NCBI GenBank assembly: GCA_000165345.1
Contig: CM000429.1
Coordinates: forward strand, 704,001-768,000
Direction of reading: 5' to 3'
DNA length: 64,000 nucleotides
Positions 1-60,422 of the stretch are shown piece after piece; the stretch's first letter is position 1, and every line of letters begins with the position of its first letter. The position numbers were made by a program, and so were the translations under genes. Under the pieces are notes generated by a model. It was not told where the DNA came from, searched no databases, and worked only from the letters and a program-made list of their open reading frames with translations.

Positions 1-211
1 TTTGAATAAAAGAATTTATAAAGGAAGATTATATAGAGGGAAAATAATTCAGGATATTTAAATCAAGAGAATAAACATGAACTATTTATTAAGGACTAAG
101 TCTAATTTTTTGCTAATATATATTTTAATGATTGGTGTGAAAAAAGCATTAGAGTAAACAAATGCGGTATAGTATCTGTATATAAACATGGAAATGTGAA
201 TTGAAGATTAG

Positions 212-976
212 TTAGTCAGTTTTGTGTTTTTTACCTTTTTTTGACTTTGCTGAATTTTTGTTTTTGGAGGTTTGTTTATTATTATTGGTTTTGTTATTAT
301 TAGTAATGGGTTTGTAAATATTAGTAGTCTTTGATCTTTCTTTACTATTTAAATACTTATAAACTGGGTCTTCTTTCATAACTTTAGAAACTTTCATATT
401 CCTTTTAATATCGTAAATCATAAATAAACCAACTTCAGCAATTAAACATAGAATAGAGCATGCAATTCCAATGAAGATTCTGGAGTTAATATCCTCAAGA
501 CCCATATATAATGGAGCATAGAATCCACCAATAAATGTTAAAATAAGACCAATTAGTGCATTCATACTCATTAAAACGTCTCTAGAATAGTGCACTCCAA
601 AGGCATCTGGTACATTATTTGAAGTTTTAGTATACTTAGCTTGCGATAAATTTTTGATTGATGATTGATATTTACGTTCTTCTGAGCGCTTTCTTAATAT
701 TTCTATTATAGACAAATTTTTTTGTGTTGCATTTTTTTGATTCTGATCTAAGTCGATCTCTTTTTTGCTATTCAAAAGAAGTTCTTGTAGACTTGGAATA
801 GAGTCAACATTCTTTTCATCAGTTCCATTTTCTTTATTAATAGAGTTATATTCTTTAACTATTTTTGAATATGCTTTATATAATGTATCTACATCAATAT
901 TATCTGAGTTTTTAAAGGACTTATCACCATATTTAGAGAAGAAATCTTTCAGTTCTGGGGTAACTGAAACCTTCAT
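212..976 (-). CDS. hypothetical membrane protein (two predicted TM helices, basic N/K-rich C-terminus)
   Basis: 254-aa ORF. Hydrophobic stretches NALIGLILTFIGGFYAPLYMG and IFIGIACSILCLIAEVGLFMIY. No recognisable catalytic motif. Confidence 0.5.
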   Translation of the reverse strand: MKVSVTPELKDFFSKYGDKSFKNSDNIDVDTLYKAYSKIVKEYNSINKENGTDEKNVDSIPSLQELLLNSKKEIDLDQNQKNATQKNLSIIEILRKRSEERKYQSSIKNLSQAKYTKTSNNVPDAFGVHYSRDVLMSMNALIGLILTFIGGFYAPLYMGLEDINSRIFIGIACSILCLIAEVGLFMIYDIKRNMKVSKVMKEDPVYKYLNSKERSKTTNIYKPITNNNKTNNNKQTSKNKNSAKSKKGKKHKTD

Positions 977-2191
977 TTAGCTCAAATATTGTCACTTCTG
1001 TTAATGCTATTACTACTTTTCGTGGGGAATTAATAATCTATTAATTTTTTTCTTTTCTTTTTCTTTTAGTGACTTTATTTAATATTTGAATTAATCTTAT
1101 TCCCGCCTAATTGTGATCTTAAAGAATTAATTTCCAGAGGTTCTTAAAGATTCTCTTGAAAGGATATGATATAAATAAAATCTTGTAATTTAAGAAAAAG
1201 AGAATCGAAATGAATTGTTTTTTTGCTAATGATAAATTTTTATACATCTTTCTTATTAGGTAGATTTTTCAAATCATATTCAGTTTCAAGATCCTATCTA
1301 TTGCTTTATTATACATAGTAATATTCAACTATTACTTTCATTAATAGATTTATTTATTTAATTAGGCCACTTTAAAAAAAAAGTATTGAATTTTAAATGT
1401 GGGTTTTTTTTTGTAGAATACAAATAGTTACATTGAACTTTTAGTTAAAATTAATAAACAAAAATTACAGTTATTAAATAGCTTTTAATCAATTATCAAG
1501 TTATGAAATTTTCATTAAAACTTAAATTACTCAATATTAGTAATTCTAATATGCTATTGAATTTTTATTTTAAACATTTACAAGTACTAATAGTTATATA
1601 AGTTATCAATAAAATAAAAATATTAAAAAAATTATATTAAATAAAATTTTTGTAAAAGCTCACAAAGTTTAATAGTACTACCGGCAATTATTTTCTTATA
1701 ATATTTTGAATTCTTATGCATGCAAGAATTATGCAGTCATTATTTTTGGTACCGGCATAGGCGCCACCTTGCATGCAAAAATTAGTTCATGTGGATGCAG
1801 AAAAAATAATAGTGTGGAATAAAAAGAATTATACGTATGTAATAATAGTAAATGTTAAAAAAAAAAAAAAAAACTTAAAATAAGTGGCAATAATAATATA
1901 TATAAGAGAAAAATTGTGAAGTAAAAGTTAGAAAGAAAAAGTAGAATTTCAACAAAATTCTATTGTATTTCTTTTTCTCTTAAGTCCATTTTTTCGATGA
2001 TAAATGGATTCAAATTGATATAATTAAAGATTGACAACTAATTATTTAAAATAAGCTTTTAAGGAAAAAGAGTTACTATAAAAGTACGAAAGAAAAACAA
2101 ATTAACGAGAATAATTCTTCAAGAGTTTAAATTTTTAATAAATCAACGATATTATATGTGAAATAAATTACTATCATTAAAAAAAAAGCTG

Positions 2192-2227
<36 letters not shown>

Positions 2228-2288
2228 CAGTTCCTCTTTATATATATACATATTGTTATTTATATATAAATATATAATATAGGGGAAA

Positions 2289-5200
2289 ATGACTGATCAT
2301 AGCCAAATTATGGATAGTGTGATTGCAACCCCAAGAGCTTCAAGTAATGGTAGCATATTCTGGGTTACTCCAACACAATTTAATCCACAAACAGGCACTT
2401 ATCAGACACATTATTATTCAGATGATTTGGTGAAATCTGGAACAGTTAGTGTTGGAACCCCAACATGGAAAAATAATTCAATGGTTCCACAAGCAATTCC
2501 ATCTTCAAATATAAATAGTAAATCAGTTGCAGCTCCGATTTTAATTCCTCCTCCGCAAAGCCGAAATTTGGCAAACTTTGAAGATCCAGTGATAAGGATA
2601 CCAGAAGGAATAAAAGAATTAGAATATGAAGATGACGACGATCAAAGTGTTGTAGATATTAAACAGTTAGGTCAAAATTTTGATTATGATTCAGAGAATG
2701 GCGATAATTCAAATAGAGCAAAGAATGTGGTTGATGCTGTAGTTGCATTAGGACATGTTTTAGTTAAAGATTTGCAAAAAGCAGTACCAAATTTAAAAAA
2801 CAGTGGAAGTTCAATTTTTGAAAGCTGTCTTGCAGGTTCAAATATTACTGGTTTAGAAAATGAGTTGGCATTTTCTCCAAAAAATATATTAAAAGATACA
2901 TTAAAAAACAATACCCAAGTTAAGCCACATTTACTTCCTAATGGGGTAACTATGCAAGAATTAATTGCATCAGGGGGTAATATTGGAAGTTCACCAGATA
3001 AAAGATTTAAAAAAATGTCGAGTATGCTTTCATCTTCAACATTATTATCTTCAGAATTATTTTTTGATCAAAATAAATTCCCAAGAATGAGCTTAATCAC
3101 TTATGAGTCATCTCATAATAATAATAAGGCAATTCAATTGAATCAGGAAGCCGTAAAACGTTTAAATTCAGATTTTGGAGATTCACCTCTATGCTTTATA
3201 AGCTTGATTGATTGCCCTAGTGAATTATTCTCAACTTTGTTATTAAATCCAGATTTGGAATCATTATCAGTACAAAAGATAATTAATAAAGAGTTATCAG
3301 ATAGACAACAACATATTACCAATAATCAAAATAGTTTGGTTGATTTATACTATTGGTACAAAGATGAAGAATTTATATATTTATTATTAGATTTTAAAAT
3401 TTCAATGATACCAAAGTTACATGATATTTTATTAATTCTAGCAAATTCTATTTCATCTACCGTTGTTATGAATAATTCTGGAATAATTAATCAAGAATCT
3501 TTAAAAAAGCTTGTACCAATTATGGATTTACAAAAAGAATTTGAATCACGTCAAGAAAAAATTATTAATAAATTGGTTAATAATAGTAAATCTGGAGGTA
3601 TGAGTAATAATAATAATAATAATAATAATATAAAGAGTGGTGAATTTAATACTCCACCACGAGAAGTTGGACAAGAATTAAAAGATGATGATTTCAAAAC
3701 AGCTCAAGCTAATCCATTGTTATTATTAACTCCAAGATATAAACCTACTCTAAGATCAGAAACTTTTAATGAGTTTAATCAAATAACTGAACAAGAATTA
3801 GATAAAAATAATTTAAATCATGGTACTCCTAGAACCTTATTATGCACTTTAAAAACTACTCCAAGGCCATATTTAGTATGGTTATTACATGATTTTAATT
3901 TCTTATTATATGATACAGCTAATAATATGATATTAAAAAGCATTGATTATTTTGAGACACTTATGACAGAATTAGGTTGTGGTTATGAATGTGAAGATTC
4001 ACAGATTACTTATTTTGAAAATCTCAAGCTTTATTTAAGATCATATTATACAATGAAAGAATGTCATACATTAGTTTCACCATATACAATTGATAATAGT
4101 GAAAGAAAAATTAGAATGGATCATATGAAACAGATTGCTTGTTTAAGACAGAGATTACTTGGAATAAGTAAAAATCATGCAATCAGTCATAAGCTTGGCC
4201 AGTATAATTCATCATTAACAATTAATCGTTATCTTTCAATATTCTTTAAAGTATTAAATAATAATGAAACACAAGATCTCTCAGAGTTGAATGAAATTGT
4301 GCAAAGAAGGTTTTGTGATAGAATATTAATGGATGTTAATGATTATTATTTGTCAGAAGACAAGAAATTAATGGAATCTTTACCTATGAATGAAACTGCA
4401 TTAAAATGTGAAACTAAAGAGATCAGATCCAAATGCATGCATTTATATAAGGAATACACAAGTACATTAATAGATACTGATATTTATATTGATTATAAGA
4501 TTCAATTACAATCAGAATTACAAGATAGAGAGAATGATACAATAAAAGAGAATTTAAATATTTCAGTAAAATATTGTACAACATATTTGAATGAGATAGC
4601 AAAAAAGAATATTTCAAATAAATTATATAATGGAATAAAAAGTAATAATACATCATTTGAAAGTTTAAATAATAAAAATAGTAATATTAATTCAAGAAAA
4701 CAATATAGTATATTAGATCTTGAGAAGGATTTGGATGATATATATTTAACTATGTTAGATAGTTTGAATGATAAAATTCCAAGAGAAATATCATTGAATT
4801 GTTTTCTAAAAGTGGCAAATGAACTTAGACATGAATGGTATCAAGTTAATGGAAGTGGAAATAATATGGGGTTAAACTCCAGTTCAGTTAATAGTAAAGG
4901 AGTGGAAAACGATAAAATTGGAATAGAAAATTGTTTTGGTAGTAATAATGGTAATAATAGATTTGATGATGAATTTATGAGAAGAATGGAAACTCCTGAA
5001 ATGCTAGTAAATAGGCTGAATGCTGATTTGGAAGAAATTGATTCGGAGTATAATGGTTATTCTTTGATGCAAAAAAAGGAGTTATTGGAAGATATATTAT
5101 TAGAAGCAACAAAGAAGAAGGATCGATTAAGTGATTTTTATAATAGTAACCAACTATATGGTTTAGATAATTTAATAACTGCAGTACAAGATAGATTGGA

Positions 5201-6028: not shown

Positions 6029-8050
6029 TTAATATGGTGAGAAGTTAAAGTTGGGACGACCTTCTGACGGAATATTGTAATATGGGGAAGAAGTTTCATA
6101 AGTTGATCTGTAGTTTGATAGTGGATCTGGTGTAAGGAGCGGGTTTGGTGGAGAGTTGGAGTGTGCGGTGAATTGGTCTTCTTGTTTTCTGGTGATTGTG
6201 CTAGAAATTGAGTTATTTTTTGATAGAATAGTATTATGTGGTGGAGTAATTTGATTATTATGATTACTATAATTGTAGTTGTAATTACTATTAGTACTAG
6301 GATTAATATTAGTATTATTATAGTTATAGTTGAATGTTTCCGTAGTATTTTGGTTTTGAATTCCAAGTGAAGCATTAGTTTTAGGTTTAGAGATCGATGA
6401 TAATGAGAGAATAGGCTGGTTATTACTGTTATTGAGTGTAGATGGTGAAGGTGGTTTTGAAGAGATAGTTTTCATATATTCATCATTTGGACTTATGATA
6501 GTTTTAAGTTGAGGAAACTGTTCAGTTGATGCATTAATGGGTGTATTATAGATTGAGCTATTATTATTGGGAATAAAGTTTTGAGGATGATGAATATTTG
6601 TATTATATGTTGAGATTTGAGGGAATTGACTTTGGGATTGAGGGATAGAGTTAGATGAGGGTGAAAAAGGTTGTTGAATATAATTAAGATTTTGAATAGA
6701 ATTATTGTATGGGAGTTTGTTATAAATTTGTTGATTTGGTGGGGAGAATGATGAAGATTGATTTTTCTTTTGTAAAAAGATATCATTTCTGCATCTTAAA
6801 AGATTAACAGTACCGTTAAGAATTCCATTGTTTACAAGTTGGAAAAAGTCATCATAAGAGCAGAACTCTTTGTTAAGGTAATCACGAATAACTTGAGATG
6901 CAAGTTTTTTAGATTTTTCAGAGGAAATTTGAGTTTTCTTTTTTGGTTTTCCATTTTTATTATTTGTAGTAACTTTAATAATACTAATATGTTCAATAAG
7001 TTTGGCAAGCTCATCAATAGAAAGCAATCCATCACGATTGGAATCATAGTAGAAGAATATGAACTGTAATCTAAGCCTATTGAAATTTGGAGAATTTTTT
7101 TCTTTAATATTATATGGTCTAAAAATGAGCATTCCAGTAAGAAATTCGACTTGGGTAATGTAATCATCTTGATTTCTATCCATTACACTAAAAATAGTGC
7201 CTCTATATCCAACTTCAATAATATTGACATATTCCATAAGTTTTTCAAATTCAAAGTTTGATATGAATCCTTTAACAGTATTTGAAAATGAGCTAAATAG
7301 AGTAGATAAGTAGTTGCATTCATTTTGAACATCAAGTTCAACCACTGCAAGCGGTAGAAGTTTGGAGTAGCTATTCCATTCTTTCCAGTTGGAGCTATTT
7401 GGTTTAGTTACTGTACTCTTTGCATTTGCATAACCTCCAAATTCAGTTTTTTTTGCTGTATTTAAATCAATTCTGCTTGATGATATTACATTATTGTCGT
7501 ATGAAGATGGTAATTTCCCGGCTCCCATTGGTGCTCCTATAGTAGTTATTGTTGCTGTTCCAGTACCTAATTTTATTGGTGCTGCTGCTTCTCCAATTCC
7601 AGTTCCAGTTCCAGTTCCTGATGAAATATATTTTTCTCTTGATTGATAATTACTGTCGATTATTCGACTGGATTCATCAATTGTATTAATTCTATTTGGA
7701 ATAGTTTCATATTCTATTGGTGTATTAAAATTATCGTTGCTTTGATTTAAATATTGATAACCACTTATATTATGAATATTATTATGTTGATTAATATATC
7801 TTGGATATACATTTGGGGATGAAACATAACTCTTATTAGTATTATTAAAGTTATTATCGCCTGTATAATAATAAGTTCCAGCATTATTTTTATCTGAATA
7901 TTCTGATAATGGTAATTTATATTGATTATAATTTCCGGGTGAATTTGGCTGTAAGACTTTTTTCATATTGTTTAAATTCATGCTAGTACTGGGATTACCA
8001 CCTATTCCATTAATATTTGCACAGTTTCCAAAACTTAGCAATTGGCTCAT
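6029..8050 (-). CDS. EF-hand domain protein with N/S/T/P-rich low-complexity flanks
   Basis: Two canonical EF-hand loops, DRNQDDYITQVEF and DSNRDGLLSIDEL, in the central region. The rest is N/Q/S/T/P-rich, typical of Dictyostelium. Confidence 0.6.
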   Translation of the reverse strand: MSQLLSFGNCANINGIGGNPSTSMNLNNMKKVLQPNSPGNYNQYKLPLSEYSDKNNAGTYYYTGDNNFNNTNKSYVSSPNVYPRYINQHNNIHNISGYQYLNQSNDNFNTPIEYETIPNRINTIDESSRIIDSNYQSREKYISSGTGTGTGIGEAAAPIKLGTGTATITTIGAPMGAGKLPSSYDNNVISSSRIDLNTAKKTEFGGYANAKSTVTKPNSSNWKEWNSYSKLLPLAVVELDVQNECNYLSTLFSSFSNTVKGFISNFEFEKLMEYVNIIEVGYRGTIFSVMDRNQDDYITQVEFLTGMLIFRPYNIKEKNSPNFNRLRLQFIFFYYDSNRDGLLSIDELAKLIEHISIIKVTTNNKNGKPKKKTQISSEKSKKLASQVIRDYLNKEFCSYDDFFQLVNNGILNGTVNLLRCRNDIFLQKKNQSSSFSPPNQQIYNKLPYNNSIQNLNYIQQPFSPSSNSIPQSQSQFPQISTYNTNIHHPQNFIPNNNSSIYNTPINASTEQFPQLKTIISPNDEYMKTISSKPPSPSTLNNSNNQPILSLSSISKPKTNASLGIQNQNTTETFNYNYNNTNINPSTNSNYNYNYSNHNNQITPPHNTILSKNNSISSTITRKQEDQFTAHSNSPPNPLLTPDPLSNYRSTYETSSPYYNIPSEGRPNFNFSPY

Positions 8051-9675
8051 TTTGCGATATTCAATCAGTCACTTTTATTATCTTTTCTTTCTTAGTTTAT
8101 ACAATCTTAACTTAATTAAAGCAATAATTTTATTATAATTATTATTATATTTAGGATTATGATTGAAAACTAAATATTGTGGGCTTTTTAAGTAAATAGA
8201 TATATAAAATTAAATAAAAAAAGAAGGAAATGGATCTTTCTTGATTCGATTTTGATTTATATAATCAATCAATAAGCCGAGTTACTTATTTGTAAAAATA
8301 AATTCACATATATTTCTTTTTATTTCCTTTTTTCTTTTTTATTCCTCTTTTTATTTTATCCCTTTATAATAATAATCTACATAATATATACATGGAAAAT
8401 ATTATGTATGCCTGCTTGCCCGCCAAAAATTTTGAAACACGTGGAGATTAAATGACTAAATAAAAAAAGAAAAATAAATAAATTTATTCTAATAATATGG
8501 AAAATTTTCTTACATAAAGTTGTATGAAAGAACATCGTTATTTTATTTTATTTTTCCTAATCTTATTAAAAACATAAAAAATCTGAATATTTCTAAATTA
8601 TACTGCATTCCAAATAAAATGTAATTAGTTATTATCTTTAATTATATCTTGAAAATAAAAGGAAATTATTTGGGAAAGAAAAAAAATAATTAGCTAACAG
8701 TTTAATATCTATTTTTTTAAAAGTATTATTAATAATTAAAATTTTATTTGTACAAATCATCATTACCGGTATTGTTTGAAAAAAAATGCTTGCATTTTCG
8801 CATGCATGCACAATTTTTTACTAAAATCATTTATCCACATAAAATTTTATGTGGACAAAAATTTTAAAAAAATTAAAATTAAGAATAGAAACGAATAAAT
8901 GGTTTATAATGTTTAATTTTGGTATTGAATATTATCTCGTAAATGTATACAAAAAAGAAGAAAAAAAGAATAAGTAGTAGTAAGAAGAAGGATTGTTTGA
9001 TTATTGGTAATTTAATTTTATTTATAGAAAGTAAGTGTATTCAAGAACTCAAGTGAATATATTACAAATACTAAATATTTATTAGCGTAATAAATATTGA
9101 AAAAAATTAATTATTTAAAGTATTTGATTAATAAATATTAATAAGATATATGCGTAATTTGAAAGATTTAGGAGCAAATAGAATATTACAAGTGTGGGGC
9201 GGCCTGTATGTGTGTCATGTCGTAAAATAAATATTTGGGTTATATAAAAATATAAATATATATTTTATATTTATATTATATTGTACTTAAAAAAAAAAAA
9301 TATATTAATGAATAAAGTTTTTCAAAGAAAGGAGAACACAAAACTTGGCTAAATTATAAAATCGAAACTTTTAATAATAATAATATTATTATTATATGCA
9401 TAAATATATATAAAAGGTATAAACAAGATATTGCAAAGAAGAGAATTAATTAAATAGAGAATATAGTGGTGGTTAGTAATAAATATATAATGAAAAATAT
9501 TTGATCCAGAATCTAAAAATTAATAAAATATTCTCTCAGTTAAAATTAGGAGAAAATAAATAAAATAGTTTTAAGGTAAATAAAGAGAATGCAAATTAAC
9601 AAATAATATTTGAAATAATATATAGTTTAAGGAAAAATTATATATTTGAGAATAATAATAATATATTTGAAAAAA

Positions 9676-12270
<2,595 letters not shown>

Positions 12271-12476: not shown

Positions 12477-15400
12477 TTAATTGAAAAAGGGGAGTAGTTG
12501 GACAATCTTGCAATTTTGTAGTGTATCAATAATTAAAAGAGTGTTCTTATTGATGAAAATTGCATGGGAAATGATTTTGTTGTATTGATTGGATGTTAAG
12601 CTGTTATTAATAATATTAAGAGGATTTAAAGAAAGGGAATGATTAATATTGAATTTAATAATTGGTACGATTGTAATTTGATTATTATTAAAATATCTTT
12701 TGAAAGATGATTTAAGTAATAGAAATATATGATAAATAATACAAATACCATCAGATGATAATACTGTTAATTTTGAATTAATATAATTCGAATTTCTGTT
12801 AATAATATTATTAAGAGTGTTTAAATTGGATAAATTTGAAGTAAGTATATTCTTTTGTTTAAGTTTAAATAAGCTTGGATTTAAAAATTGTCTTCCAAAT
12901 AAATAAGATATAAACCATAAATTTCCAGTATTTGTAATAATTAAGAGTGTATTAGCTTGTTTCCAATTATGGCTTGTTGAAATTGGTGAACTTTCTAAAG
13001 CTATTAAAAGATCTGGTCGACTAATTATAGGTAAATTATATGATAAATTAGTCCAAATATCCCATATACATAAACAATTTTCATCTGATAATACTGATGA
13101 AATTTCGATCTTACTACTTAAATTCAAAGTATTATCTCCCATAAATTCTGCCAAATTTAATGTACCACTATTAATTAGAGTTCCACCTAATCCAATTCCT
13201 CCTTCACTTTCATTTAAGTAACCATAACTATTACCACCAATTGAATAAGAACTATTGGACTTTGCAGTATTAGGTGTTGATGCATTACTAATCGATTGTG
13301 ATTGAACATTATTGTTATTATTTGTTGTAGTAGTAACACTAATATTACCACCAACAATAGGTATTCTCTCACCTCTTGAATTAAATTTAGTATAGTTTCT
13401 AAAATTGAATGACGACCTTCCAAGTTCATTTCCTTCATTGTTATTAAAACTATTATTATTAATACTAGTAGTGTTATATACGAAATTGATTCCATTACCT
13501 GATGTTAGAATATATCTGCAAGAATAGTCAATAATTCCTGACCAAAAACAATTTGATTTATGTACTTGGAATATATATATTGGAATAAATGGATTCATAG
13601 CAGAACTTGACTTTGAACTTGAATTTGAATTTGAACTTGTGCTTGAACTTGTACTTTGTGCATTAATTGAACTTGAAGTCAAAATAATATTACTGCTGGA
13701 TGATAGTGAAGAATTATTTACACCTCCATTATTGACTGAAGTTGTTTGTAAACTATTATGAGATGAGGAAGGTTGGGAAGGATTAATATTGGGATTAGAA
13801 GGAACAAAAATCTCATCCTCTTCATCAGATAAGTAATTATTGTTGGAGTTGAGTTTATAAACCATAATAAAACCATTCGAAGTTGAGATAATTATATGTA
13901 TTTTACTTGGAGACCAACTTACATGGGTTATATTACCTAAATTATGATTATTTACCATTAATTTATTCAAATTAGTTGAAGTTGTAGGAGGCAATTCTTG
14001 GTGATAATTACGACCTTGGCCAATAGAATCAATACCCTTAAAAGATCTTTTATTAACATTATTTGATGTTAAATTGTAATATGACTTTGATAAACTATTT
14101 GAAATCATTATTGGCTTTGGATTTGATTTACTACTATTAATATTATTAATAATATCTCCAGTAATATTACTACTGGTATTAATAAAATAATTGGGATGAT
14201 TTACTTTATGATAATTACTGAAAGCTAAAGAATGACTCCAATATGGATAAACAATATGAGAAACTCTTGGATTTCTTAATTGTATTGCTTCACCACATAT
14301 TATTGCTTTGACATTATTGAATTGATTTTGTATTTTTGAAAAACTTAACGGAATATCTGTAAATATCTGTAAGAATCGTATTTCTTGAAAATTACAAGTT
14401 AGATGAGATCCTGATCCAATATTTGTATTAAAATCCGATACTCCTCCCCCTATATTTAACTCATTTTCTTTTGATGTATATAAATCGAGATAAATACTTT
14501 TAACTCCTTTCTTTATATTAACACAAAAATCAATATCATATATTGGCATAATACAAGGAGATGATGATGATGATGATAACAATAAGCTTTTATTACTTTT
14601 TCTTCTTTCCAGTTTTCTATATGATAAAAGTCCATGATCATCTTGATTTTCCTCCAATTTCCCAAAAATTAAGAGTCTCTTTAAAAGAAAAGAGTTTAAA
14701 AGAACTTCTAATCTTATGATCTTTTCTGATTTGAAAATGTTATCAAAATCTTCTCCGAATTTACCAAATTTCATTCCCTGAAAAATAACTCCTTCATAAT
14801 AATATGAATTTATATGATTTCTTCTCATAAAACTTATTGGATGAATAAAATATAATTTTGAATTTAACATTAAGTGAGTTTTTTCACCTAATAATAAAAA
14901 TGGACTGTTATTTACATCCATCTTACAATCCATCAATAATGGACTTTCTTGATATAATATATGACCTAATAATGTATTTGATCTTTCTACTCCTTCTTTT
15001 TCACCTTTTTGAATTCTATTCTTATACCATTTATAATAATAATCTTCTTCATTAACATATTCATTTTCATTCTCTAATTCAACTAAAGTTTCAGATTCAT
15101 TCTCATCTTGTTGCTTACTTTGATCAAATCCAAAATAATGATAATAATAAAAATCATCATCTTCATATTGTTTAATCTCATTATCTATTAATATATTATC
15201 ATTCATCATATTCTCCTCTTTTTTACTGTCTCTCTCCAAATCTTCAATATTGTTATTATTACCACTCAAATAGTGAACATTTGGAACTAAATTAAGTTTA
15301 GGAGTTGGAATAATACGATTATTATATATTAACATATTAATCATAAAGAGTGATGGATTATTCATTCTCATTGATTCTTCTTTCTTATTCAATCTGAATC

Positions 15401-18400
15401 TATCATCACTTACTTCAAAGTATTCATTTGAAAAATCTAGTTTCAATTTTTCAAGTTCAAAACCTGAATTTTTATTATTATCATTACTTGTATTTGTTGT
15501 TGTTGAATTTGTACAAGATATACTATTTAATAAATTCACAGAATACTGTTCACTAGATTCTAATTCAATGCTTGAGATATTATTCGAGTTTTCTTTAAAA
15601 TTCCATACCTTCTTCAATAAATAATAATATAAATTACTGATTGATCCAATATCATATGATATTATTAATTCCTTATTTCTTAGTATATTTATTAATAATA
15701 GATTTTTGATTCCCATTCCAATCCAAATTTCTTTTAATATAATAATAATTTTGATTATAATAACATTAATAGTGGGCAGATGATGATTATTAGTATTTAG
15801 TTCAGGATAATTATTAGTATTAACAACTCGAGTAAATAATATACTTTTCTTTTCATCAATAGAATCATAGTAATATGTTAGGATGAGTGGTAATAACGGA
15901 ATAATAATTTCTTTCCATTCTTTAAATACTCTATTATTATAGGACTCTTTTAAAGCAAGATTTAATTGGTCTGTTGTTATCTTGTTTGTAATAGATTCTT
16001 CTTGTAATATAGAATTGAAACTTAACTCGCTATTATTATCTTCATTAATTAATTCTTGATGAATTTTTATTATACTAGTAGATAATACTATTATTATAGT
16101 ATTAAAATACATGAGTTGATCTTCTTTTACATATTGAAATGAATTATTTTGAATTTCTTCTTGGATATTATCATTATTAGAATTACTTTCAATATCTTTA
16201 ATATATCCATATTCTTTAGTAAATTCTAATAATAACCTCAAAAGCTTTAATAACTTGATTCCTAATCTTTTGGTTAATCTTCTTTTTAAATGCAAATCTA
16301 ACTTTTGATAACTTTTTAATATTATAACAAACTTGATTATTTTTATTAAATTTTGATACTTGAGCACATTAATATCTTTAGAACCTTTTATTTTGGATAT
16401 GAGATCCTGTATAATAATCATAAACATATAAATTTTTAATAGCTTGGTTATAATAATTGTTGGATTTTCATTAATAATTTTGGAAGAACCAACTTCTTCT
16501 CCTTCATTTCCAGGCTCTAACAATAATTCAAATAAAATATGATTAACTTTATTCCTAAATATTAAAATTAATAATTCACATTTATTTATAATATATTGAT
16601 CACCATTCCTACTTTCGAAAGTTAATATAATTTCATTATTAATTCTGGAAAAAAACTCAAATAAAGAGTCCCATATATAATCAAATCCAAAATGACCCAA
16701 ATTCCAAGAATTCTTATTTTCTGAAAATATCTCAAAAATTAAATTCAAATATTTACCCCTCAACCCGGAAATATCTTCTGATAGTCTTTTTTTACATGCA
16801 ACATGCATTATGCTAATATCATTTTTAATTACGTCATTTTTTGTGTGCATACCGGTATTGACATTATTAAAATATTTGTCCACATTAGTTAATAATAAAT
16901 AATTAAAAATATTAATAGGATTAATATTAAGATTGTTTTTTTCTTGATTATAGTTGAAATGAAATACGGAAATAAATTCTGGAATTTTGGAATATTGATT
17001 AATCCATTCAAAAAGATTATTGTTGTTTAAGAAGAAGAAGTAATTAATATGTAAATATTTTATATAATTTTGAATTCTATTGAGAATATTTGGCTTAATA
17101 ATTAAATTATAATAATGATAATGAATATTTTTTGTTTTAAAAAAGTCTTGATTATTTTCGATATAAGTTAGCCACGAAATATAATGGTATGGATTCATAC
17201 ATTTTTTGATATAATAAGAAATTATTTCAATTATATTGTCAAATGATGGATATTTTAAGCTTTCACTTAATTCATAAGATTGAGATTGTGAGCTGATTAA
17301 AATTTTTAATTTAATATAATTATTAAATAAGAATAAATGTTCAGGATGTATAAAGCTGTAATTTAAATCATAACTATTTTGATCATTTAAATAAGAATCT
17401 TCAATATATTTATTATTTGGAATGATTTCTTCAATCTTTATATTACTTTTAAAATAATCTTCTATACTACACATTAATTCACAAACTTTAAAGAAAATTG
17501 TTGGACATGATAATTTTAACAAAATATTAAGTATATCCACTCTATTAATATTATCAAATTTGAAATTATTTACACTTGAATAATTTAATATTGATATTAT
17601 GCTTAACCACGGGTCTTTATTTATTAATGATAATAACCATAAATTACTCAAATACTTATTGTAAAGATTCACCAAAGTATTCTTCTCATTATCATTTATT
17701 CCATTCGAGTTTAATAACAATTTTAATAAAAGAAATAATAGTTGTGGATCATTCAAATACTTTATACATATGTTTGCTATTTCGTCATAAGATCTACTTA
17801 ATATAAAGAAACACAAACTCCAATGGTACTTTCTTTGTTTTATCAAGTAATAACCATTATTAATTGCTTGTTTCTTTAATTCATCATTATTTATATTATA
17901 ATTTAATAAAAAATCAAATACATTCTTTTGATCTAAAATCTTAAATATTGCAGAAACTATATTTAATTTATTAATGCATGTGTATATTATCAAAACAATA
18001 TTTAACATTTCATCTTGGAAAATATTACTATTTTTTTTCTGATTATCTGGAAATTCAAAGCTTAATTCTTTTCTCCTTTCAGAAATTACTTTTATCAGGT
18101 TTTGATATAATTTTTGAACCCATTTTTCAATAAATTCCTGAAATTTAAAATTTTCTGTTAATATATAAATCACTCCAAACTTTTTCAAATCTTTCCAGTC
18201 GATTAAATTACTATTAAAATTCCCAAGAATTTTATCAACTATATGGTCCTTTTCGCAAAGTGAAATCCAACAAATATCTTCAGATTTTAATATGAATCCA
18301 CCTTCTCCTAACATATCATAGTAATTTATTCTTATAAAATATCTCTTTATTTGGTATTCTTCGAATTCCGTAATATTCATTCTATGGCCATATGTTTTAT

Positions 18401-21400
18401 TTTTTCTTAGCTCTATTAAAGAATCGTAAAGTTTTTGATATTCTCCTAAATTTTCCAAAGATTTATAATCTTGGTTATCATAATATCCATCCAAATAATC
18501 ATCAAGATTGTAAGGCACAATATTAAGATTTGGTGAATCTTGAATATCCTCTATAATCTTATCAAAAATTTGTTTGGAAAATGATTGCTTTCTATCATTT
18601 AATGAAAAAACAAAATCTTCCAATACTTTAATTTGTTTAAGTGAAAAATTATTTCCTTTCTCATATATATTATTTTCAGGTCTTTTATATATTCTTGGAA
18701 TAATTTGGTCATTTGTATTAAAAAATAAATAAAGTCCATCAAAAATTTCCAATCTTTGTATTCTAATTAACTCACCAGTATTACTCATCTGGAAATGTTC
18801 ATACAAATCTATCTCGTTATTGGTTTCCCATCTACATACGTCCTTGTTCCAGTAAATTGACCCAATAATTTTTCCATGGTTAACTATGAAACAAAAATAA
18901 GTCATTTCAAAGTCTTGAAGAATTACTAGTTGATTATTCTTGTATTTATTATATGAAGTTAAATCATCGTCGCTTTCATTATTTTTTTCAAAAGAGATTT
19001 CCTTTGAAAAATTAATATTTTTTGATTTATACAAACTATAATCATCAATAATTGAAATCTCTTGAAAAGGATTTAAAGAAATGGTTTCTTCTCCTTCAAT
19101 ATTAAGCAGATTTAATGATAATAAAGAATAACAAAGCAATATTCCATTCCTATTATTATAAATTAATAAGTTATAATCCAATGTTTTTATTAATAATGAA
19201 TCTTTTGTGAAATCAAAGAATGATCTGTTCAACTTGATTTTTGAAGTTATTTCAACCTTATTATGGATATCACTTATATTACAAATATATATATAAAGTT
19301 GTCCCATTTCATTAATTTTATTATTATTAATCATTTCTTGGCCATTTTCTTTATCATATATAAAAATATTGGTTGTTACAAATATTAATGATTTTTCAGT
19401 ACTTGGTTGTTTTATTAATAAAAAACATCCATTAAAATTTATATTGGATAAACTTTGATACATATATGTTGATATTAACCTTAATTCTAATTGAATTCCA
19501 GATTTATTATAACTTTTTTCAATTTGGCTTAATAATAGAGATTCTTGATTTTTTATATTAATCTCAAACATTATTATGTGGTTAACTTCAAAAACTAAAT
19601 CTTTAACCAAACATACGCAAATACAATATCCACCAATTACTGAAGAATGTTTATCTAAGAATACGATTTCATATTTATTATCCATAAATTCATTAAAAAA
19701 TAATTTTTCCAGAATTTGTTCATGATTAATAAATAAATCACTATTATCGTTTTCTAAGCTCCCAATATTATCCCCAGAAATTATTCCTTGACTATTAATA
19801 TCAACTTGTAATAATTCTAAAGTTGAAGAACCATTTTCACAAATACTCGTTAGTCCAAATATTCTCAATTGGCTTGAATTATTTAATTGTACTAATAAAA
19901 TCTGATAATAACTGGAAGTTATTCCTTCTGATATATTAACTATTTTTTCAATATTCAAATCATTTAAATCATAAATATCATTATTATCAAATTCTATACC
20001 GTTGTCCACATTAATATTTAATGTGTGCATGTTTGAAAAAATGCATGCAAAATTATTATTTGCATGTATAAATGTAAATAATTTTTTGGGATTAAGATTA
20101 TCTAAAAGAAGGATATGTCCATTATTGAGTAAAATAAGAATTTCATTGATATTAGTAAGCTCTACAGCAAATTTTCCATAAATATTATTAGTATTTTTGA
20201 GATTTGATTGAATTTTTGGAGTAATTCTTATTAATTTTGAAAAATGCCAAATACCAGTTTTGTCATTAAAAATATATTCAGAAATGCTTGAATCTTTTAA
20301 TTGAAATATAAAATTATAATTATTTCCATTTGAATGGTTTGAAAGTTTATCATTCTTCCAAAATATCATAATATTTGACACGTCACTAGGTAAAATATTA
20401 TTTCTATTAGAAATAAAATTCATTTGTGAGTTGTTTATGAAATTCTTATTATCAATATTATTAAATTGGCAGATTTCCCATTTACATATTGATGAATTAA
20501 TTTCATCATTCCAAATGTCTAATTGAAATACATTAAAGCAAAAAACTTCTTTGCCAATGGAAATTATTAACTTTACTTGCTTATTTTGTTCCTCATTCAT
20601 TGTAAAAATATCACAATTATGTATGCAAGAATTTAAAGGAATTGAAGATTTGGAAATCTCATCATATTCTGAATTTAAATTATAATAAAAATAATCATCA
20701 TTGTCATCTTCAACAAGAGGAAATCTATTTGTTGAATAATAATAAGAAGGATCTTCAACTTCAACATTATAATCATTAATAGATTTATCTAATGCTTCCA
20801 TTGAATTAAAATGATGAATTACATTATCTCTATAACTTTCCCAAATTATATTAATATCCTCATTTCTAACGAATGGTCTATTATTAAATCTTAAATATAA
20901 AGTTTGAATAAATTGACATGGTTTATTTAAAGATGATTCTCTCCAAATTCTAATAATTATTTCTTCATTATTTCTTGAAATTATACAAAAAGAAGATAAT
21001 TCTGAAATTCCTCCAAGTTTCTTTAATTTATATGGTATTTTTGATGACCAAGGCTTCCATGAAACATTTATAATCTTTTCTTCTTGTTTTAAAGAAATCT
21101 TTTGAAATTGAAATTGGTTTGGAAATACACCTGAAATACGAGTATTACTACCAATTGTATATAAATTCATCTCTTCTTCATTCTTTGAATATTCATATCT
21201 CCATATAAATAATTCATTATCTAAATGTTGATATACTAGAATAAATCTTTCACTATTATCAAAAGCTAATTGTAAATCTATTCTTGGACCTGCAAAGCTT
21301 AATTCTTGTTCTAATAATGGTTTCGAATCTACACCTGTTAATATTTCTATATATAAATTTTCCAAATCATTTAAAAATGTATTTGATTCCTTTTCAAGTC

Positions 21401-22031: not shown

Positions 22032-22526
22032 ATTTCTCGTACACTTGACGAATAAATTTACGCAATTTTTCCATCCATCACTTTTTTTCTTTTCAATTTA
22101 TTTAATATATATTCATTTAATTAATATTATTTACTTTCTGAACCCGCTCCCGCCTTTGGCGGGCATTTGTGGTTCGGTACTTAAGACAAATTCTACTATT
22201 AACTGGAAAAAATTATTAAAAGGAAAGAAAAAAAGTAAAAGGAGAATAAATTTAAGGGAGGAATGTGAAGCAAGGATTTTCTTTTTTTTCTATAAATAAT
22301 AAATTTATTAAAAAAAATAAATTTATTTATTATATATATGAATATATATATATGTATATATACATATATATATACATATATATGCAAGTATAGAAATATT
22401 TAATCAAGTAATAAAGAGAAGAGAATATTAAAATAATAGATTATTTAGAGACTATTGAAGGAATTATTTTATTAGTATTCCTTTTTTCCTCCCTTTGTAA
22501 ATAAATTAAAAGGTGAATAAAAGTAA

Positions 22527-38936: not shown

Positions 38937-39763
38937 TTTTTCTTGAATAAAAGGTTACTCTTTTCCTTTTCTTCTACACCATTGATACCACTCTCAGTAA
39001 TATATTATAACTAATTCAGTCACTCACCCATTTCTTCTTTTTTGCTGTAGAAGAAGAAAGTTCAATTAACATTCATTTATTCACCTCAATATTTCTTTAT
39101 TCTCCATTAAATGGTAACTTCAATATTTAGGCGGCAACTGTTGTGCATGCACCACATGCAAATTACTCAATAATGTGGGGCGGGCACAATAAATAATAAA
39201 GGAAGTGCCATATTAGTTTGTGTAAATTTGTTGTGGTTTATTTTCACCAATGATAACAAATTCGGAACATAAAGTTACAAAAAGAATATCGTACATCGTT
39301 AATTAAAAGTAATTTAGTGATTATAAATCATTAAAATTTTGAATATGAAATTGGTTAGTAACAACTATAAGTAATTCGTTTTCTTATCATTTTATATTGT
39401 TACCATTTATATTCTTTTTTTATTGGACTTTTCAAGATTCCAGATATGTTTGAAATTATTGTTTTGAATTAATTTCGTGCATATCTATGTTTTTTTCTTT
39501 ACTAAATGGTCTTGTTAAAAATCACTATCTCTGATTCAATTTTTTCTTTTTTTCCCTGAATTATTGAAGATTATAGTTTACTAGAAACTAATATTATTTT
39601 TTGCCATAAAAATATTTAAAAAATATATATAGATATATTACATTACCGGTAAAAAAAAAAAAAAAAAAAAAAATTTAACCCCAAAAAACTTAAAATTCTC
39701 AAAAAAAAAAAATAAATACAAAAGAAAGGAATTGTAAAATTGATTAAAGTATTAAGGTTAAAA

Positions 39764-40332: not shown

Positions 40333-40657
40333 ATTATTCTTTTAGCTATTATTAATTCCTATTTAAATATTATAATTATTTTTTTTTCCATCACTTATTT
40401 AAAAAAATAAAATAATTAAAACAATTACGTGTTTGACTAAATTATTATTATTATTATTTTTGCATGTGGTCAACTTTTGTACCGGTATTTACATGCATTA
40501 TTGAAAATAACTTTATGTGGACAAATTAATGCAAGAATTAAATTAAATTTTAGGAATGATATAGATTGAATTATTAAAAAATAATAAATTGGAACATGCA
40601 AAATAAAATTAATATTAAAATTGAACAAGTAAATAATTAATTAATTAATTTAATACA

Positions 40658-45392: not shown

Positions 45393-46615
45393 ATAAATTA
45401 ATTAATGCAGAAGCTATTCACGACAATCGCTTGATCAATTGTAGTATTAATATAATCCAAAATATTCATTCAATTATCCAATATTAATAATTAGAAACTT
45501 AATTAATCATTTATTTATTTACAAAATTGATCAATTCATGTATTGTTTGTAATGATATTAAAATTAAATGATTCTTTAATTACATATAAAAGATTAAATA
45601 TTTCATTATATTTAAATCGTATGTGATCAATTTACTAATAAATATTTATTAGTAAAAAATCAAGTTCATATACAGAAAACTATATTAAATTCAACAAATT
45701 TCCATGTTAAAGATCTTTAAGTAATATTAATAATTTTTTTTGTATTATTCAAGAGCAAATATTATTTTTTTTATTTTTTTTTATTTTTTTTTATTATTAT
45801 TTTACTATTATTATTAATAATAATATTATTATTTATTACTATAATAATATCAATATTATTATCTCCTCATACTTTTCTTGTGTTAATGCTACCTTGATTT
45901 GCCCTTTATTCTGCCCCCATCCTAACTTTAACCTCTGTAGATTATGCTAATAAATCACGGCGGAGACTAGACGTGGCGCAAAGGACTCTTTGCGTTGGGT
46001 AAATTTGTGGGGCAACGCAGATTCTATGTGGATGTCAAAAGTGACGTGTTTGGTTCTGAACCGGTATAGGGATTTGATTAATTGCATGTACAACTATGTG
46101 GACAATTTTTTTAAAAAAATGCATGTGAATATGCATGCATAGATGCGAAAAATAATAATAACAAACAAAGTGGATTTCTCAGTAATTATTGAGAAAAAGA
46201 ACTACAAAGATAAGTTGGAAATAAGAGAATAAAAAAAGGGAATAATAACAATAATAATTAATTGTAAAAACTTGGGATAATGTTAATATCAGAGACGAGT
46301 GCAACAAGCACAATGAAATATCAACAAAGATCCGATAATTGTATTTAATATAGGCATGACTTAGCACCATAAGATCAGTGAACTCTCAAATTGTTTTTTT
46401 ATTCAAGAAGTTATCAATTACAGTGACTCTGTATGCCAAAAAATTAAATGAATTCAAATTAATATTTATGAGAATAAATTTGTATTCATTGAAAAGGGAG
46501 AAAATAAAATTTGAAAATGGAGTTGACTTTTTTTTAAAAATAACGAAGTTACATTTTAATGGGTAATAAGTATTAATATATACATTAAAGAAATGAAAAA
46601 TTATAATTTTTACTA

Positions 46616-59756: not shown

Positions 59757-60422
59757 ATGCAATCATATAAAATCAATGAATTTGGCAATGAAATTCATAA
59801 CAACAAGATAAATTTCGAGCCTTCTGGATTATTAGCTAAGGAATCAAACTCTCTAAATGGAGTATTTCTAAAGGTATGTTTTTAAATAAGTTTAAGAAAA
59901 CTTTATTAAAAAAAAAAGTATTCAAAACCTTCAGATTCATGCAATTCACATAAAAAATGGAAACTTTATGTATTTAAATATAATTATCCACATGATGTGG
60001 GGAAAAATGACAATACCGGTATTGTGCATGTAAATAATGACAGTTCATGTGGACAACACGTATATAATGAAACAATACCATTATATAATAATGAATATTA
60101 TTTAATAGGTAATTTTTGATGAAAATTTCAGTTAATTAATTAATTATCTTTTTTCTTTGATAAATAAGGTAAGGATGCAAGAGTAGTTAATATAAACTTA
60201 AAAGAAGACTCGATAGAAGATCAACATGCAGTAATACAACATAGAGTTAATAAGAAAGGTATTCCAACAATATATATAATAGATTTAGATAGCAAGTATG
60301 GTACATTTATTAATGATGAGAGAATAGAGTCAAGAAGATATTATGAGTTAATTGAGAAAGATTCGATCCGATTTGGTGAATGTAAAAATGAATATATTTT
60401 ATTGCATGATGGAATGATATGA
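59757..60422 (+). CDS. snip1: SNIP1/Pml1-like FHA-domain protein (3 exons: 59757..59873, 59919..60108, 60169..60422)
   Basis: Exon 1 INFEPSGLLAKESNSLNGVFLK matches SNIP1 PNFELSGALLEDTNTFRGVVIK. Exon 2 YSKPSDSCNSHKKWKLYVFK...ETIPLYNNEYYLIG matches YSEPPEARIPKKRWRLYPFKNDEVLPVMYIHRQSAYLLG. Exon 3 GKDARVVNINLKEDSIEDQHAVIQHRV..IYIIDLDSKYGTFINDERIESRRYYELIEKDSIRFG..EYILLHD matches the FHA core. Donors GTATGT at 59874 and GTAATT at 60109; acceptors end at 59918 and 60168. Confidence 0.7.

Follow-up and report, generated by a model that had tools for sequence, protein, structure and literature searches.

Gene control in Cryptosporidium, an important diarrhoeal pathogen, is poorly understood. In Plasmodium berghei, female genes are reported to carry a 10-base element, TGTRNNYACA, which is a palindromic dimer site of sexual-stage regulators. 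Bankier, in 2003, is said to have singled out two abundant octamer motifs, one E2F-like and the other that of TGCATGCA. A 2025 review recognizes only six families of upstream motif, namely AP2_1, AP2_2, G-box, E2F, GAGA and CAAT. The first of these, with the word TGCATGCA, is the ApiAP2-binding motif of Apicomplexa (Oberstaller 2013, PMC3734150); the word has been linked to late or sexual-stage expression, and TGCATGYR has been tied to macrogamont genes (Hasan 2024, PMC11078545). In oomycetes, an upstream motif, ATACCGGTAT / GTACCGGTA, has been described in Plasmopara halstedii and Phytophthora (PMC10031896).

The stretch that we analyzed is a 64-kb window of Cryptosporidium parvum chromosome 1, comprising genes cgd1_3200 to approximately cgd1_3490; all positions given here are those of the window. 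In the middle of the 1.6-kb gap between cgd1_3220 and cgd1_3230 it contains a perfect 22-bp palindrome, TCCACATAAAATTTTATGTGGA, at positions 8834-8855. The palindrome resembles the P. berghei element in its inverted half-sites and in their location within promoters of genes under stage regulation, but the half-site has a different sequence, and its spacing in Cryptosporidium is not fixed. Like AP2_1, its arm word is short, over-represented and conserved in Cryptosporidium non-coding DNA, and the two occur in the same module, with GCATGCATGCA only 24-34 bp from the palindrome. The arm word ATGTGGAYAA nevertheless matches neither TGCATGCA nor any of the other listed ApiAP2 words (GCACAC, GTGTGT, GCGTGCA, G-box), and the AP2_1 pattern BGCATGCAH, which GCATGCATGCA matches at 8800-8810, is not matched by the arms TCCACAT/ATGTGGA. 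With the C. parvum G-box-like motif (DTGTGGGG / G.GGGG) the arms have in common a TGTGG core and an upstream location, and a true G-box-like copy, TGTGGGGCGG, is present in the same intergenic region at 9193-9202. Where the G-box needs GGG, however, the arms read TGTGGAC or TGTGGAT in all species. Since no species varies at these positions in either motif, we treat the arm word and the G-box as distinct. An E2F/DP site ([A/T][C/G]GCGC[G/C][A/T], TTTGGCGGGAA) was rejected, as the palindrome has no GGCGCC or GGCGGG core; E2F-like cores are found elsewhere in the intergenic region, at 8419-8424 and 9198-9202.

Two further systems invite comparison. The oomycete motif is the same palindromic word as TACCGGTA(TT), a partner of the arm word, and it too is over-represented upstream of genes and lacks a known factor. 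Oomycetes are stramenopiles, however, and no ATGTGGAC partner has been reported for their motif, so the resemblance may be coincidental. Two directional copies that face outward to divergent genes, roughly equidistant from both, are also reminiscent of bidirectional promoters with mirrored core elements; the difference is that cgd1_3220 and cgd1_3230 each have a conserved proximal block much nearer to the ATG.

The words ATGTGGAC and TACCGGTA are absent from the searchable C. parvum motif literature: neither is mentioned in Mullapudi 2007, Oberstaller 2013 and 2014, the 2025 review, the ATAC-seq/polycistron and lncRNA preprints, Tandel 2023 or Hasan 2024. Literature searches found TGTGGAC, ATGTGGA, ACCGGTA and TACCGGTA only in primer sequences, with the exception of one oomycete motif paper. 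The text of the protein-binding-microarray paper contains no GTGGA, CCACA or CCGGT strings, and the texts searched name no ApiAP2 domain that binds the arm sequence. The silence of earlier C. parvum upstream-motif surveys on both words would be odd if the words were common and tracked expression. As a candidate reader of TACCGGTA, a Grainyhead-like protein (AACCGGTT) is in our estimation a poor fit, and we likewise take none of the bZIP ACGTGG-type, Runx, CSL and Ndt80-like sites to be a good fit for ATGTGGAC.

Layout of the intergenic region

To the left of the palindrome is the EF-hand gene cgd1_3220 (6029..8050, minus strand), which has EF-hand Pfam matches, and to the right is cgd1_3230 (9676..12270, plus strand), a protein kinase gene of the OPK group with a Pkinase match of E=2e-31. 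With a minus-strand gene and a plus-strand gene on either side, the initial annotation was correct in speaking of a divergent promoter region. The distances from the palindrome to the ATGs of the two genes are roughly equal, at 784 and 826 bp, and the gap between the genes is long (1.6 kb) in every intestinal species examined. The same annotation described a perfect inverted repeat without a spacer, and this is what is found at 8834-8855, where the half-sites TCCACAT and ATGTGGA are inverted with respect to each other. In terms of composition, the palindrome is made up of two outward-facing ATGTGGA cores with AAAATTTT between them. The left copy, ATGTGGATAA on the minus strand (8831..8840), points to the EF-hand gene, while the right copy, ATGTGGACAA on the plus strand (8849..8858), points to the kinase gene and includes the right arm, which had rightly been assigned to the motif of a composite element.

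Two further elements had been placed 60-90 bp upstream of the palindrome. The distance holds for TACCGGTATT, a palindromic partner motif at 8764..8773 (61-70 bp upstream), and for that motif only, because GCATGCATGCA, which represents two overlapping copies of TGCATGCA, the known ApiAP2 'AP2_1' word, sits much closer, at 8800..8810. Each gene also has a proximal block with runs that are invariant across species. On the EF-hand side this consists of an E2F-like CCCGCC and CACGTGGAG (8419..8446), and on the kinase side of the G-box/E2F-like TGTGGGGCGG and TGTGTCATGTCGTAAAAT (9193..9228); the latter block is partly retained even in C. bovis and C. muris. The palindrome module lies approximately 350-400 bp beyond the proximal block of either gene, and conservation is poor on both sides of it (8450-8760 and 8860-9160). 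From this position, in the middle of the intergenic region and beyond both E2F/G-box-like blocks, we infer an upstream module shared by cgd1_3220 and cgd1_3230 that would control them bidirectionally. At about 800 bp from either ATG, and with proximal blocks belonging to each gene, the module need not be the promoter of either one; it may supplement the proximal promoters with late or sexual-phase regulation.

Word enrichment and the composite module

A scan of the window for perfect palindromes with arms of at least 9 bp returned 73 overlapping instances, almost all of them (AT)n or pure A/T. Only those at 8834-8855 and 57910-57935 have at least three G/C per arm, and none of 100 first-order Markov simulations contained a palindrome with arms of at least 11 bp and at least three G/C per arm. 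The 22-mer is unique within the window, even at three mismatches, and occurred in no dinucleotide shuffle.

The words that make up the palindrome and its surroundings, on the other hand, recur. Counting in the 64-kb window out of the 9-Mb genome, we found 8 copies of ATGTGGAC versus 0.72 expected and 10 copies of TACCGGTA versus 0.06 expected, as well as seven copies of the exact 10-mer ATGTGGACAA. When the non-repetitive words of the window are ranked by enrichment, TGCATGCA comes first and TACCGGTA second. These words also occur together: exact TACCGGTA lies within 100 bp of four of the eight ATGTGGAC copies (p=6e-5), and TGCATG lies within 60 bp of six of the ten TACCGGTA copies (p=2e-5). 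What recurs is a module of approximately 40-100 bp that contains ATGTGGAC and TACCGGTA and usually also the ApiAP2 word TGCATGCA; in four modules the order is TACCGGTA, TGCATG, ATGTGGAC, with start-to-start distances of 33-39 bp. Most copies of the ATGTGGA word outside the palindrome are single, and the window contains two divergent ATGTGGA pairs versus 0.074 expected (p=0.003). A terminal inverted repeat of a transposon or MITE was rejected as the source of the palindrome, given that the 22-mer is unique at up to three mismatches and that the module instances share short words, not flanks.

We refer to the other instances as modules A and C to G. Module A (1743..1852, plus strand), upstream of cgd1_3210, contains TACCGGCAT, GGCGCCA, CATGCA, ATGTGGATGCAG, GTGTGGAA and TTATACGTAT in a single densely conserved block, in which stretches of 16, 21 and 24 nt do not vary among five species; a consensus RNA structure of the block had no covariation support. 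Two modules are found on the minus strand within the coding sequence of a gene for a 3184-aa Rav1/DMXL-like protein: module C (16850..16885) with ATGTGGACAA, TACCGGTA and CACACA, and module D (20002..20049) with TGCATGCA, CATGCACACA and ATGTGGACAA. Module C falls in the top peak of synonymous-site conservation of this 9.5-kb gene, where 83% of codons are identical versus a baseline of 32%, and it adjoins the longest invariant run of the gene; a 16-nt run, AATGTGGACAAATATT, is invariant. Module D is adjoined by ACCGGTAT in C. ubiquitum and C. canis. Module E (40480..40524, plus strand; TACCGGTATT, CATGCA, ATGTGGACAA) is located 142 bp upstream of the cgd1_3350 ATG, and module F (46026..46139, plus strand; ATGTGGATG, TGACGT, ACCGGTA, TGCATG, ATGTGGACAA, TGCATGCA) approximately 165-240 bp upstream of a conserved, unannotated structured RNA candidate (46262-46442). 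Module G (59984..60056), in exon 2 of the FHA-domain gene cgd1_3470, is the second divergent pair, with ATGTGGATAA(-), TACCGGTA, TGCATG and ATGTGGACAA(+) and a spacing of 53 bp; it is conserved in C. ubiquitum. C. felis lacks modules F and G, and in C. bovis a degenerate form is recognizable at module A only. Three of the approximately seven modules (C, D and G) are thus within coding sequence, an uncommon place for promoter elements. Wherever the surroundings are informative, the motif is oriented along the downstream unit on the same strand, be it a gene 142 bp away (E), the plus-strand RNA candidate (F) or the sense strand (C and D).

A broader interpretation, which we advance tentatively, is that TACCGGTA, TGCATGCA and ATGTGGAYAA could constitute a previously undescribed class of composite module, read by at least one putative DNA-binding protein and selected even in coding exons. 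Such modules might mark the starts of unannotated transcription units, among them the RNA candidate at 46262-46442 and transcripts arising within the Rav1-like and FHA genes, and the palindrome would be their bidirectional form. If the pattern holds genome-wide, it would extend the Cryptosporidium regulatory code by two words and by a module with a defined architecture, reveal regulatory DNA hidden in the coding exons of a very compact genome, and provide concrete bait for binding proteins. The palindrome between cgd1_3220 and cgd1_3230 would be a handy, symmetric locus for tests with reporters and genome editing.

Conservation and the arrangement of the two copies

Neither ATGTGGA arm varies among C. 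parvum, C. hominis, C. tyzzeri, C. meleagridis, chipmunk genotype I and C. ubiquitum, and in six to seven species the word ATGTGGA stays constant amid drifting sequence. C. canis has lost the left arm and kept the right one, ATGTGGACAA, together with ACCGGTA and CATGCA; its GC content is 41% in the locus and 35% in the cgd1_3220/cgd1_3230 intergenic region. Only nine blocks of at least 6 nt in the 1.6-kb region are invariant across five divergent species, and ATGTGGA at 8849-8855 is among them. In the partner site at 8764..8773, ACCGGTATT is invariant in four divergent species, as is CGCATGCATGCACA, within the element at 8800..8810, in four species. In an unbiased three-species footprint of 7.8 kb of intergenic sequence, ATGTGGA was tied as the 7-mer most frequently conserved to perfection, with three of five copies conserved versus a background of 2.9%. 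The full composite was seen only in the intestinal Cryptosporidium clade, and the C. muris loci lack it. A cis-regulatory motif is expected to be over-represented, to cluster with other motifs and to be under purifying selection in non-coding DNA, and all of this is found here. Our verdict is that the palindrome represents a real, conserved and most probably cis-regulatory element.

The initial annotation proposed a dimeric transcription-factor site or, alternatively, a hairpin. The first proposal is borne out in that the arms are sequence-specific and constrained, the word is enriched and forms a composite with TACCGGTA and TGCATGCA, and a second divergent pair exists; the qualifier 'dimeric', however, is not established. 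The arms are separated by 8 bp in five species and by 10 bp in C. meleagridis, with spacer sequences (aaaatttt, aaaaattttt, gaattcga and taacttac) that vary across species. The pair in module G is 53 bp apart, a third divergent pair, in module D of C. canis, is 22 bp apart, and only one arm is kept at the palindrome locus of C. canis, whereas a rigid homodimer would hold its half-sites at one distance. Since the spacing is not fixed, autonomous copies are favored over one dimer site.

We therefore prefer an explanation in terms of autonomous cis-regulatory words, placed back to back in a shared bidirectional upstream module, and consider it reasonably probable. The palindrome would comprise two outward-facing copies of a word of approximately 10-12 bp, ATGTGGAYAA(AT), each of them most likely the target, as double-stranded DNA, of a sequence-specific protein. 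The copies apparently act as separate units and not as halves of a rigid dimer site, and the pair shares the composite module with the palindromic TACCGGTA site and the doubled TGCATGCA site, a known target of several ApiAP2 factors. What we observe is the sequence, its enrichment and conservation, the company of its partner words and the concordant drug responses of the two genes; binding by a particular protein, an influence on transcription and the directionality of the copies are what we infer. The pattern fits sequence-specific binding to two autonomous copies facing outward, as opposed to a rigid dimer or a selected hairpin.

A structural reading would make the palindrome a DNA cruciform or a single-stranded hairpin, e.g. 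at a site of replication or recombination, with the AAAATTTT center aiding melting. It can point to a palindrome that is perfect over 22 bp in C. parvum and, by our reading of the alignment, over approximately 30 bp in C. tyzzeri, to an 18-bp stem (approximately 40 bp) in C. meleagridis in which both homopolymer runs have grown symmetrically, and to predicted DNA hairpins that beat shuffles in five tested species (z from -3.2 to -8.4). Hairpin potential, however, follows trivially from two inverted copies of a word, and the extra symmetry in the flanks from the longer motif ATGTGGAYAAAT on both arms. In chipmunk genotype I and C. ubiquitum the spacer lacks palindromic symmetry and pairing is limited to the 7-bp motif cores, and C. 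canis, with one arm lost, has no significant hairpin (z=-1.0) though the element is otherwise kept. Changes in the arms are never compensatory; one specific sequence is held, as it also is in conserved single copies at other places. Selection for structure would be expected to leave compensatory pairing and a hairpin in every lineage that keeps the element, and neither was found, which makes the hairpin proposed in the initial annotation highly improbable. Even less can be said for a chance product of AT-rich DNA. Cryptosporidium intergenic sequence is indeed rich in perfect palindromes, but the simulations described above yielded no equivalent containing G/C and the shuffles no copy of the 22-mer, both arms are kept across six species, and the word is enriched and clustered with partner words, so that conservation and enrichment effectively refute this reading. 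The palindrome is most likely a conserved, putative protein-binding control site common to cgd1_3220 and cgd1_3230, and not a chance or hairpin feature.

Expression of module-bearing genes and other functions

Expression data are available for both flanking genes. They are moderately expressed at all time points and classed as 'Unresolved', neither female- nor asexual-specific (PMC11078545, file S3), and both are down under five shared differentiation-inhibitor treatments (Hasan et al. 2024, PMC11078545, files S2 and S3; one RNA-seq dataset). All five genes of the window that have an ATGTGGA module and data showed only negative changes, versus 4 of the 24 other window genes; the Fisher p=0.001 for this association is post hoc and refers to 29 neighboring genes, among which local domain effects are possible. 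One gene, cgd1_3290, responds strongly to the same drugs and has one isolated ATGTGGATAA within its coding sequence; the composite module was not found upstream of it, and the module is therefore not the sole route to the drug response.

These responses bear on the idea that the element is read by a protein but is architectural, its main output being a chromatin boundary, nucleosome organization, cohesin or condensin loading, or a replication origin, and not transcription of the neighboring genes. Modules every few kilobases, both between genes and deep within coding sequence (C, D and G), are compatible with such a role, as is a palindrome placed midway between proximal promoter blocks that are conserved separately, and the silence of expression-cluster motif searches on the words would suit an element unrelated to expression classes. 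We nevertheless consider it unlikely. The ApiAP2 word TGCATGCA, with its ties to stage-specific transcription, is usually part of the module, modules E and F lie directly upstream of, and are aimed at, a gene and an RNA candidate, and the module-bearing genes respond concordantly to differentiation inhibitors. A role at the level of RNA, either as a hairpin in an unannotated transcript or long 5' UTR or through the ATG of ATGTGGA starting a small upstream frame, is less probable still. The 1.6-kb gap in intestinal species leaves room for long UTRs or unannotated transcripts, the motif of module A opens a short frame (ATG TGG ATG CAG AAA AAA TAA) in a highly conserved block, and, by coordinate mapping, a 41-codon ORF of the gene caller begins at the right arm of the palindrome or beside it. 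Yet the flanks of the module are poorly conserved, in the coding modules the ATG of the motif is not in the reading frame, the hairpin is not retained in C. canis, and no Rfam family matches the palindrome region. The partner words TACCGGTA and TGCATGCA are themselves palindromic, and recognition of double-stranded DNA is therefore indicated, as our preferred explanation of autonomous protein-bound words would have it.

A known RNA gene was ruled out by scans of the whole window with Rfam 15 at gathering score and for tRNAs, which returned nothing. Permissive Rfam scans of 8050-9676 and 45800-46620 gave nothing credible; the only match in the former was a chance-level bacterial sRNA (E=0.84). 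The notion that long intergenic gaps always mark modules was also discarded, as some gaps in the ORF map proved to be intron-containing genes (FHA, the first exon of capping protein, and PSF2).

The palindrome and its recurring words

The 22-bp inverted repeat at 8834-8855 had been annotated as a perfect palindrome in a divergent promoter region, and a sequence check confirmed that TCCACATAAAATTTTATGTGGA is perfect. The setting is also as described: a 1,625-bp gap separates the EF-hand gene on the minus strand from the kinase gene on the plus strand. [quoted passage not shown] The palindrome lies 784 bp from the ATG on one side and 826 bp from that on the other (821 bp counted from its right edge). 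The window, whose protein sequences cluster look-ups assign to Cryptosporidium parvum, is AT-rich and compact (21-30% GC, approximately 29 genes in 64 kb). Nearly all of its perfect palindromes with arms of at least 9 bp consist of (AT)n or of A and T alone; those at 8834-8855 and 57910-57935 are the only two with at least three G/C per arm, and 100 Markov simulations yielded no equivalent. The repeat at 8834-8855 is real, and it is under selection.

The second G/C-bearing palindrome, ATTACAAATTGCATGCAATTTGTAAT (26 bp, 57910-57935), is centered on TGCATGCA, sits in the short stretch that separates the 3' ends of two converging genes and adjoins another TGCATGCATGC. A 26-bp perfect A/T-rich palindrome, TTTACTAATAAATATTTATTAGTAAA, lies upstream of GPI2 at 45631-45656 and is largely kept in the orthologous C. 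ubiquitum locus (L013, about 4290-4315).

The right arm had been assigned to a composite element, and the word does recur and cluster with partner words. In the window, ATGTGGAC occurs in 8 copies against 0.72 expected, the 10-mer ATGTGGACAA in seven exact copies, and TACCGGTA in 10 copies against 0.06 expected; among non-repetitive 8-mers of the intergenic fraction, TACCGGTA ranks second in enrichment to TGCATGCA, with the E2F word behind it. Exact TACCGGTA lies within 100 bp of four of the eight ATGTGGAC copies (p=6e-5), degenerate copies adjoin two more, and TGCATG lies within 60 bp of 6 of the 10 TACCGGTA copies (p=2e-5). These contexts resolve into some seven modules: A (near 1743-1852); B, the palindrome locus (8764-8858), with partner words TACCGGTATT at 8764-8773 and GCATGCATGCA at 8800-8810; C (16850-16885) and D (20002-20049); E (40480-40524); F (46026-46139); and G (59984-60056). 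Four of them (A, E, F and G) share one word order, TACCGG(TA), TGCATG, ATGTGGA, at start-to-start distances of 33-39 bp. Two partnerless ATGTGGAC copies, at 33410 and 36045 within MAT1-like and RING-finger protein coding sequence, encode Cys-Gly and are regarded as chance occurrences.

At 39644-39673, TACCGGTA runs straight into approximately 22 A, in a gap that appears to house the tubulin cofactor A gene (cgd1_3343). The minus-strand F-actin capping protein beta gene (cgd1_3460), whose plain ORF (58073-58942) is without the first ~52 profile positions, seems to begin with a further exon and an intron upstream of that ORF (58943-59186), with its ATG near 59186 and TGCATGCA 38 bp upstream of that ATG.

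Conservation and the arrangement of the arms

Using kinase orthologues, we found syntenic regions in C. hominis, C. tyzzeri, C. meleagridis, chipmunk genotype I, C. ubiquitum, C. canis, C. bovis and C. muris. Gene order at the palindrome locus is the same in all species compared, and the gap measures 482 bp in C. muris and 1.5-1.7 kb in all others. Six species keep the module B layout, (T)ACCGGTA, GCATGCATGC(A), [T/G]TCCACAT, spacer and ATGTGGA[C/T/A]. As spacer, C. parvum, C. hominis and C. tyzzeri have aaaatttt, C. meleagridis has aaaaattttt, chipmunk genotype I has gaattcga and C. ubiquitum has taacttac. In C. canis (35% GC intergenic), ACCGGTA, CATGCA and one ATGTGGACAA remain; at this locus, C. 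bovis and C. muris are without module B. The whole gap contains only nine blocks of at least 6 nt that do not vary across five divergent species. One is ATGTGGA (8849-8855); CCCGCC and CACGTG on the EF-hand side and TGTGGGGCGG and TGTGTC.TGTCGTA on the kinase side are among the rest. In an unbiased three-species footprint (C. parvum, C. ubiquitum and C. canis) of eleven orthologous intergenic regions totaling 7.8 kb, ATGTGGA ties as the most often perfectly conserved 7-mer, with three of five copies conserved against a background of 2.9%.

These comparisons also bear on whether the palindrome is a dimeric site or a hairpin-forming sequence, as the initial annotation had proposed. A predicted DNA hairpin is better than shuffles wherever two inverted copies are present, and flank symmetry is greater in C. 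meleagridis (an 18-bp stem) and in C. tyzzeri. This extra symmetry arises because the longer word ATGTGGAYAAAT is on both arms, and in C. canis the hairpin is not better than shuffles. The arms retain one exact sequence across species, and the species comparison revealed no compensatory change in them. The fixed arm sequence, the same word conserved as lone copies elsewhere and the case of C. canis thus argue against a palindrome selected for structure. A rigid dimer fares no better: the spacer is free to vary in sequence, its length differs in one species, and another species has a single arm. Divergent ATGTGGA pairs within 80 bp do occur more often than expected in the window (2 against 0.074, p=0.003), at spacings of 8 and 53 bp; module D of C. 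canis supplies a third, with 22 bp between its copies. Together, the exact arms, varying spacer, single arm and pair spacings favor two autonomous, outward-facing copies of a putative protein-recognized word.

Module A is one place where the word is conserved as a lone copy: its TTCATGTGGATGCAGAAAAAA is invariant in five species, and the module can still be recognized in C. bovis. Both TACCGGTA and ATGTGGAC have zero copies in approximately 22 kb of syntenic sequence each from C. bovis (L011) and C. muris (L012), while the same loci in the C. parvum-C. canis group hold 1-2 and 2-4 copies, respectively; the pair thus appears largely restricted to the intestinal clade, barring module A in C. bovis.

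Module A (L011:2403-2533 in C. bovis) is also a block of approximately 110 nt, near-invariant from C. parvum to C. canis and densely strung with the motif-like words TACCGGCAT, GGCGCCA, CATGCA, ATGTGGAT, GTGTGGAA and TTATACGTAT; no covariation suggesting RNA structure was found in it. The C. muris counterpart is GTCCACGT (reverse complement ACGTGGAC), which hints that A[C/T]GTGGA is possibly one motif family.

Modules in coding sequence and near a candidate RNA

A Rav1/DMXL-like gene, whose 9.5-kb reading frame is intact and stays open in all nine species, contains modules C and D. In the codon alignment the module C DNA hardly differs between C. parvum and C. canis, and the protein there is not alignable in C. 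bovis and C. muris. Synonymous conservation peaks in the module C window (83% identical codons versus 32% for the gene overall), where the gene's longest invariant run (25 nt) adjoins its third longest (AATGTGGACAAATATT, 16 nt). The FHA-domain gene cgd1_3470 (59757-60422, plus strand; three exons and 186 aa in the spliced model, FHA E=1.3e-15), which is annotated in C. ubiquitum, carries module G in its exon 2, within a protein loop. Module G comprises a divergent ATGTGGA pair flanking TACCGGTA, is conserved in C. ubiquitum and is absent in C. felis, where the same loop has a different sequence. The module is thus under selection at the DNA level, whatever its coding context.

The strongest synonymous-site conservation of the Rav1-like gene (12477-22031, minus strand) spans 16805-16925, which coincides with ATGTGGACAA, TACCGGTATGCACACA, ATGACGTAAT and TGCATGTTGCATG; a regulatory element may lie here within the gene. 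At this very place the C. meleagridis annotation divides the gene in two (L007: 12726-17045 / 17465-22229), despite an unbroken frame. A plain ORF listing overlooks cgd1_3470.

Between GPI2 (cgd1_3380) and Vps4 (cgd1_3390), downstream of module F, lies a plus-strand non-coding block (46262-46442) whose conservation extends to C. ubiquitum, C. canis and even a GC-rich C. felis locus (orthologous positions L013:4922-5092, L014:5366-5576 and L015:4842-5092), with hairpin insertions of varying length in C. canis and C. felis. RNAalifold predicted 29 pairs, 8 with compensatory changes, and G-U pairs favor the plus strand. The block matches no Rfam family, and three orthologous annotations have no gene call at its position. 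A structured RNA may therefore be encoded here by a gene that annotations lack. Module F has its ATGTGGA copies 165-240 bp upstream of the block, pointing toward it, and ATGTGGATGTCA followed by TGACGT in this module is conserved in three species.

Known motifs and expression

Neither ATGTGGAC nor TACCGGTA is among the 25 motifs of Oberstaller 2013 (PMC3734150) or the six families of a 2025 review. The nearest catalogued motif, C. parvum DTGTGGGG, differs from the arm word at invariant positions. The text of other Cryptosporidium regulation papers contains neither word; figures and logos lie outside such text searches, and an earlier description is conceivable. In an oomycete study (PMC10031896), ATACCGGTAT is an upstream motif with no factor known there. 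Our best reading of these sequence patterns is that the palindrome presents, in bidirectional form, a cis-regulatory word that is apparently new to the literature and would belong to a composite module together with a known ApiAP2 site. The module may act as a promoter, an enhancer or an architectural site. TGCATGYR is enriched upstream of macrogamont genes and linked to the AP2 factor cgd2_3490 (PMC11078545).

According to supplementary tables from Hasan et al. 2024 (PMC11078545), expression of both cgd1_3220 and cgd1_3230 is lowered by beloranib, BAY 61-3606, mubritinib, oligomycin A and AGM-1470, and cgd1_3210 (cpbgf_1003210, a 1040-aa protein in a cluster look-up) is lowered in four conditions. 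All five ATGTGGA-module genes with data have only negative changes, against 4 of the 24 other window genes, with 11 up (Fisher p=0.001; p=0.01 at a stricter cut). Because this comparison is post hoc and involves neighboring genes, and because cgd1_3220 and cgd1_3230 are both moderately expressed throughout 18-72 h, the association is suggestive only.

CRE/bZIP-like TGACGT words lie alongside several modules. That of module F is TGACGTg at 46043-46048, with a perfect TGACGTCA as its C. ubiquitum counterpart (L013, about 4676), and that of module C is ATGACGTAAT; at 55479-55560, TACCGGTAaaATGACGTGGA and TACGTCAT lie upstream of the Dus gene.
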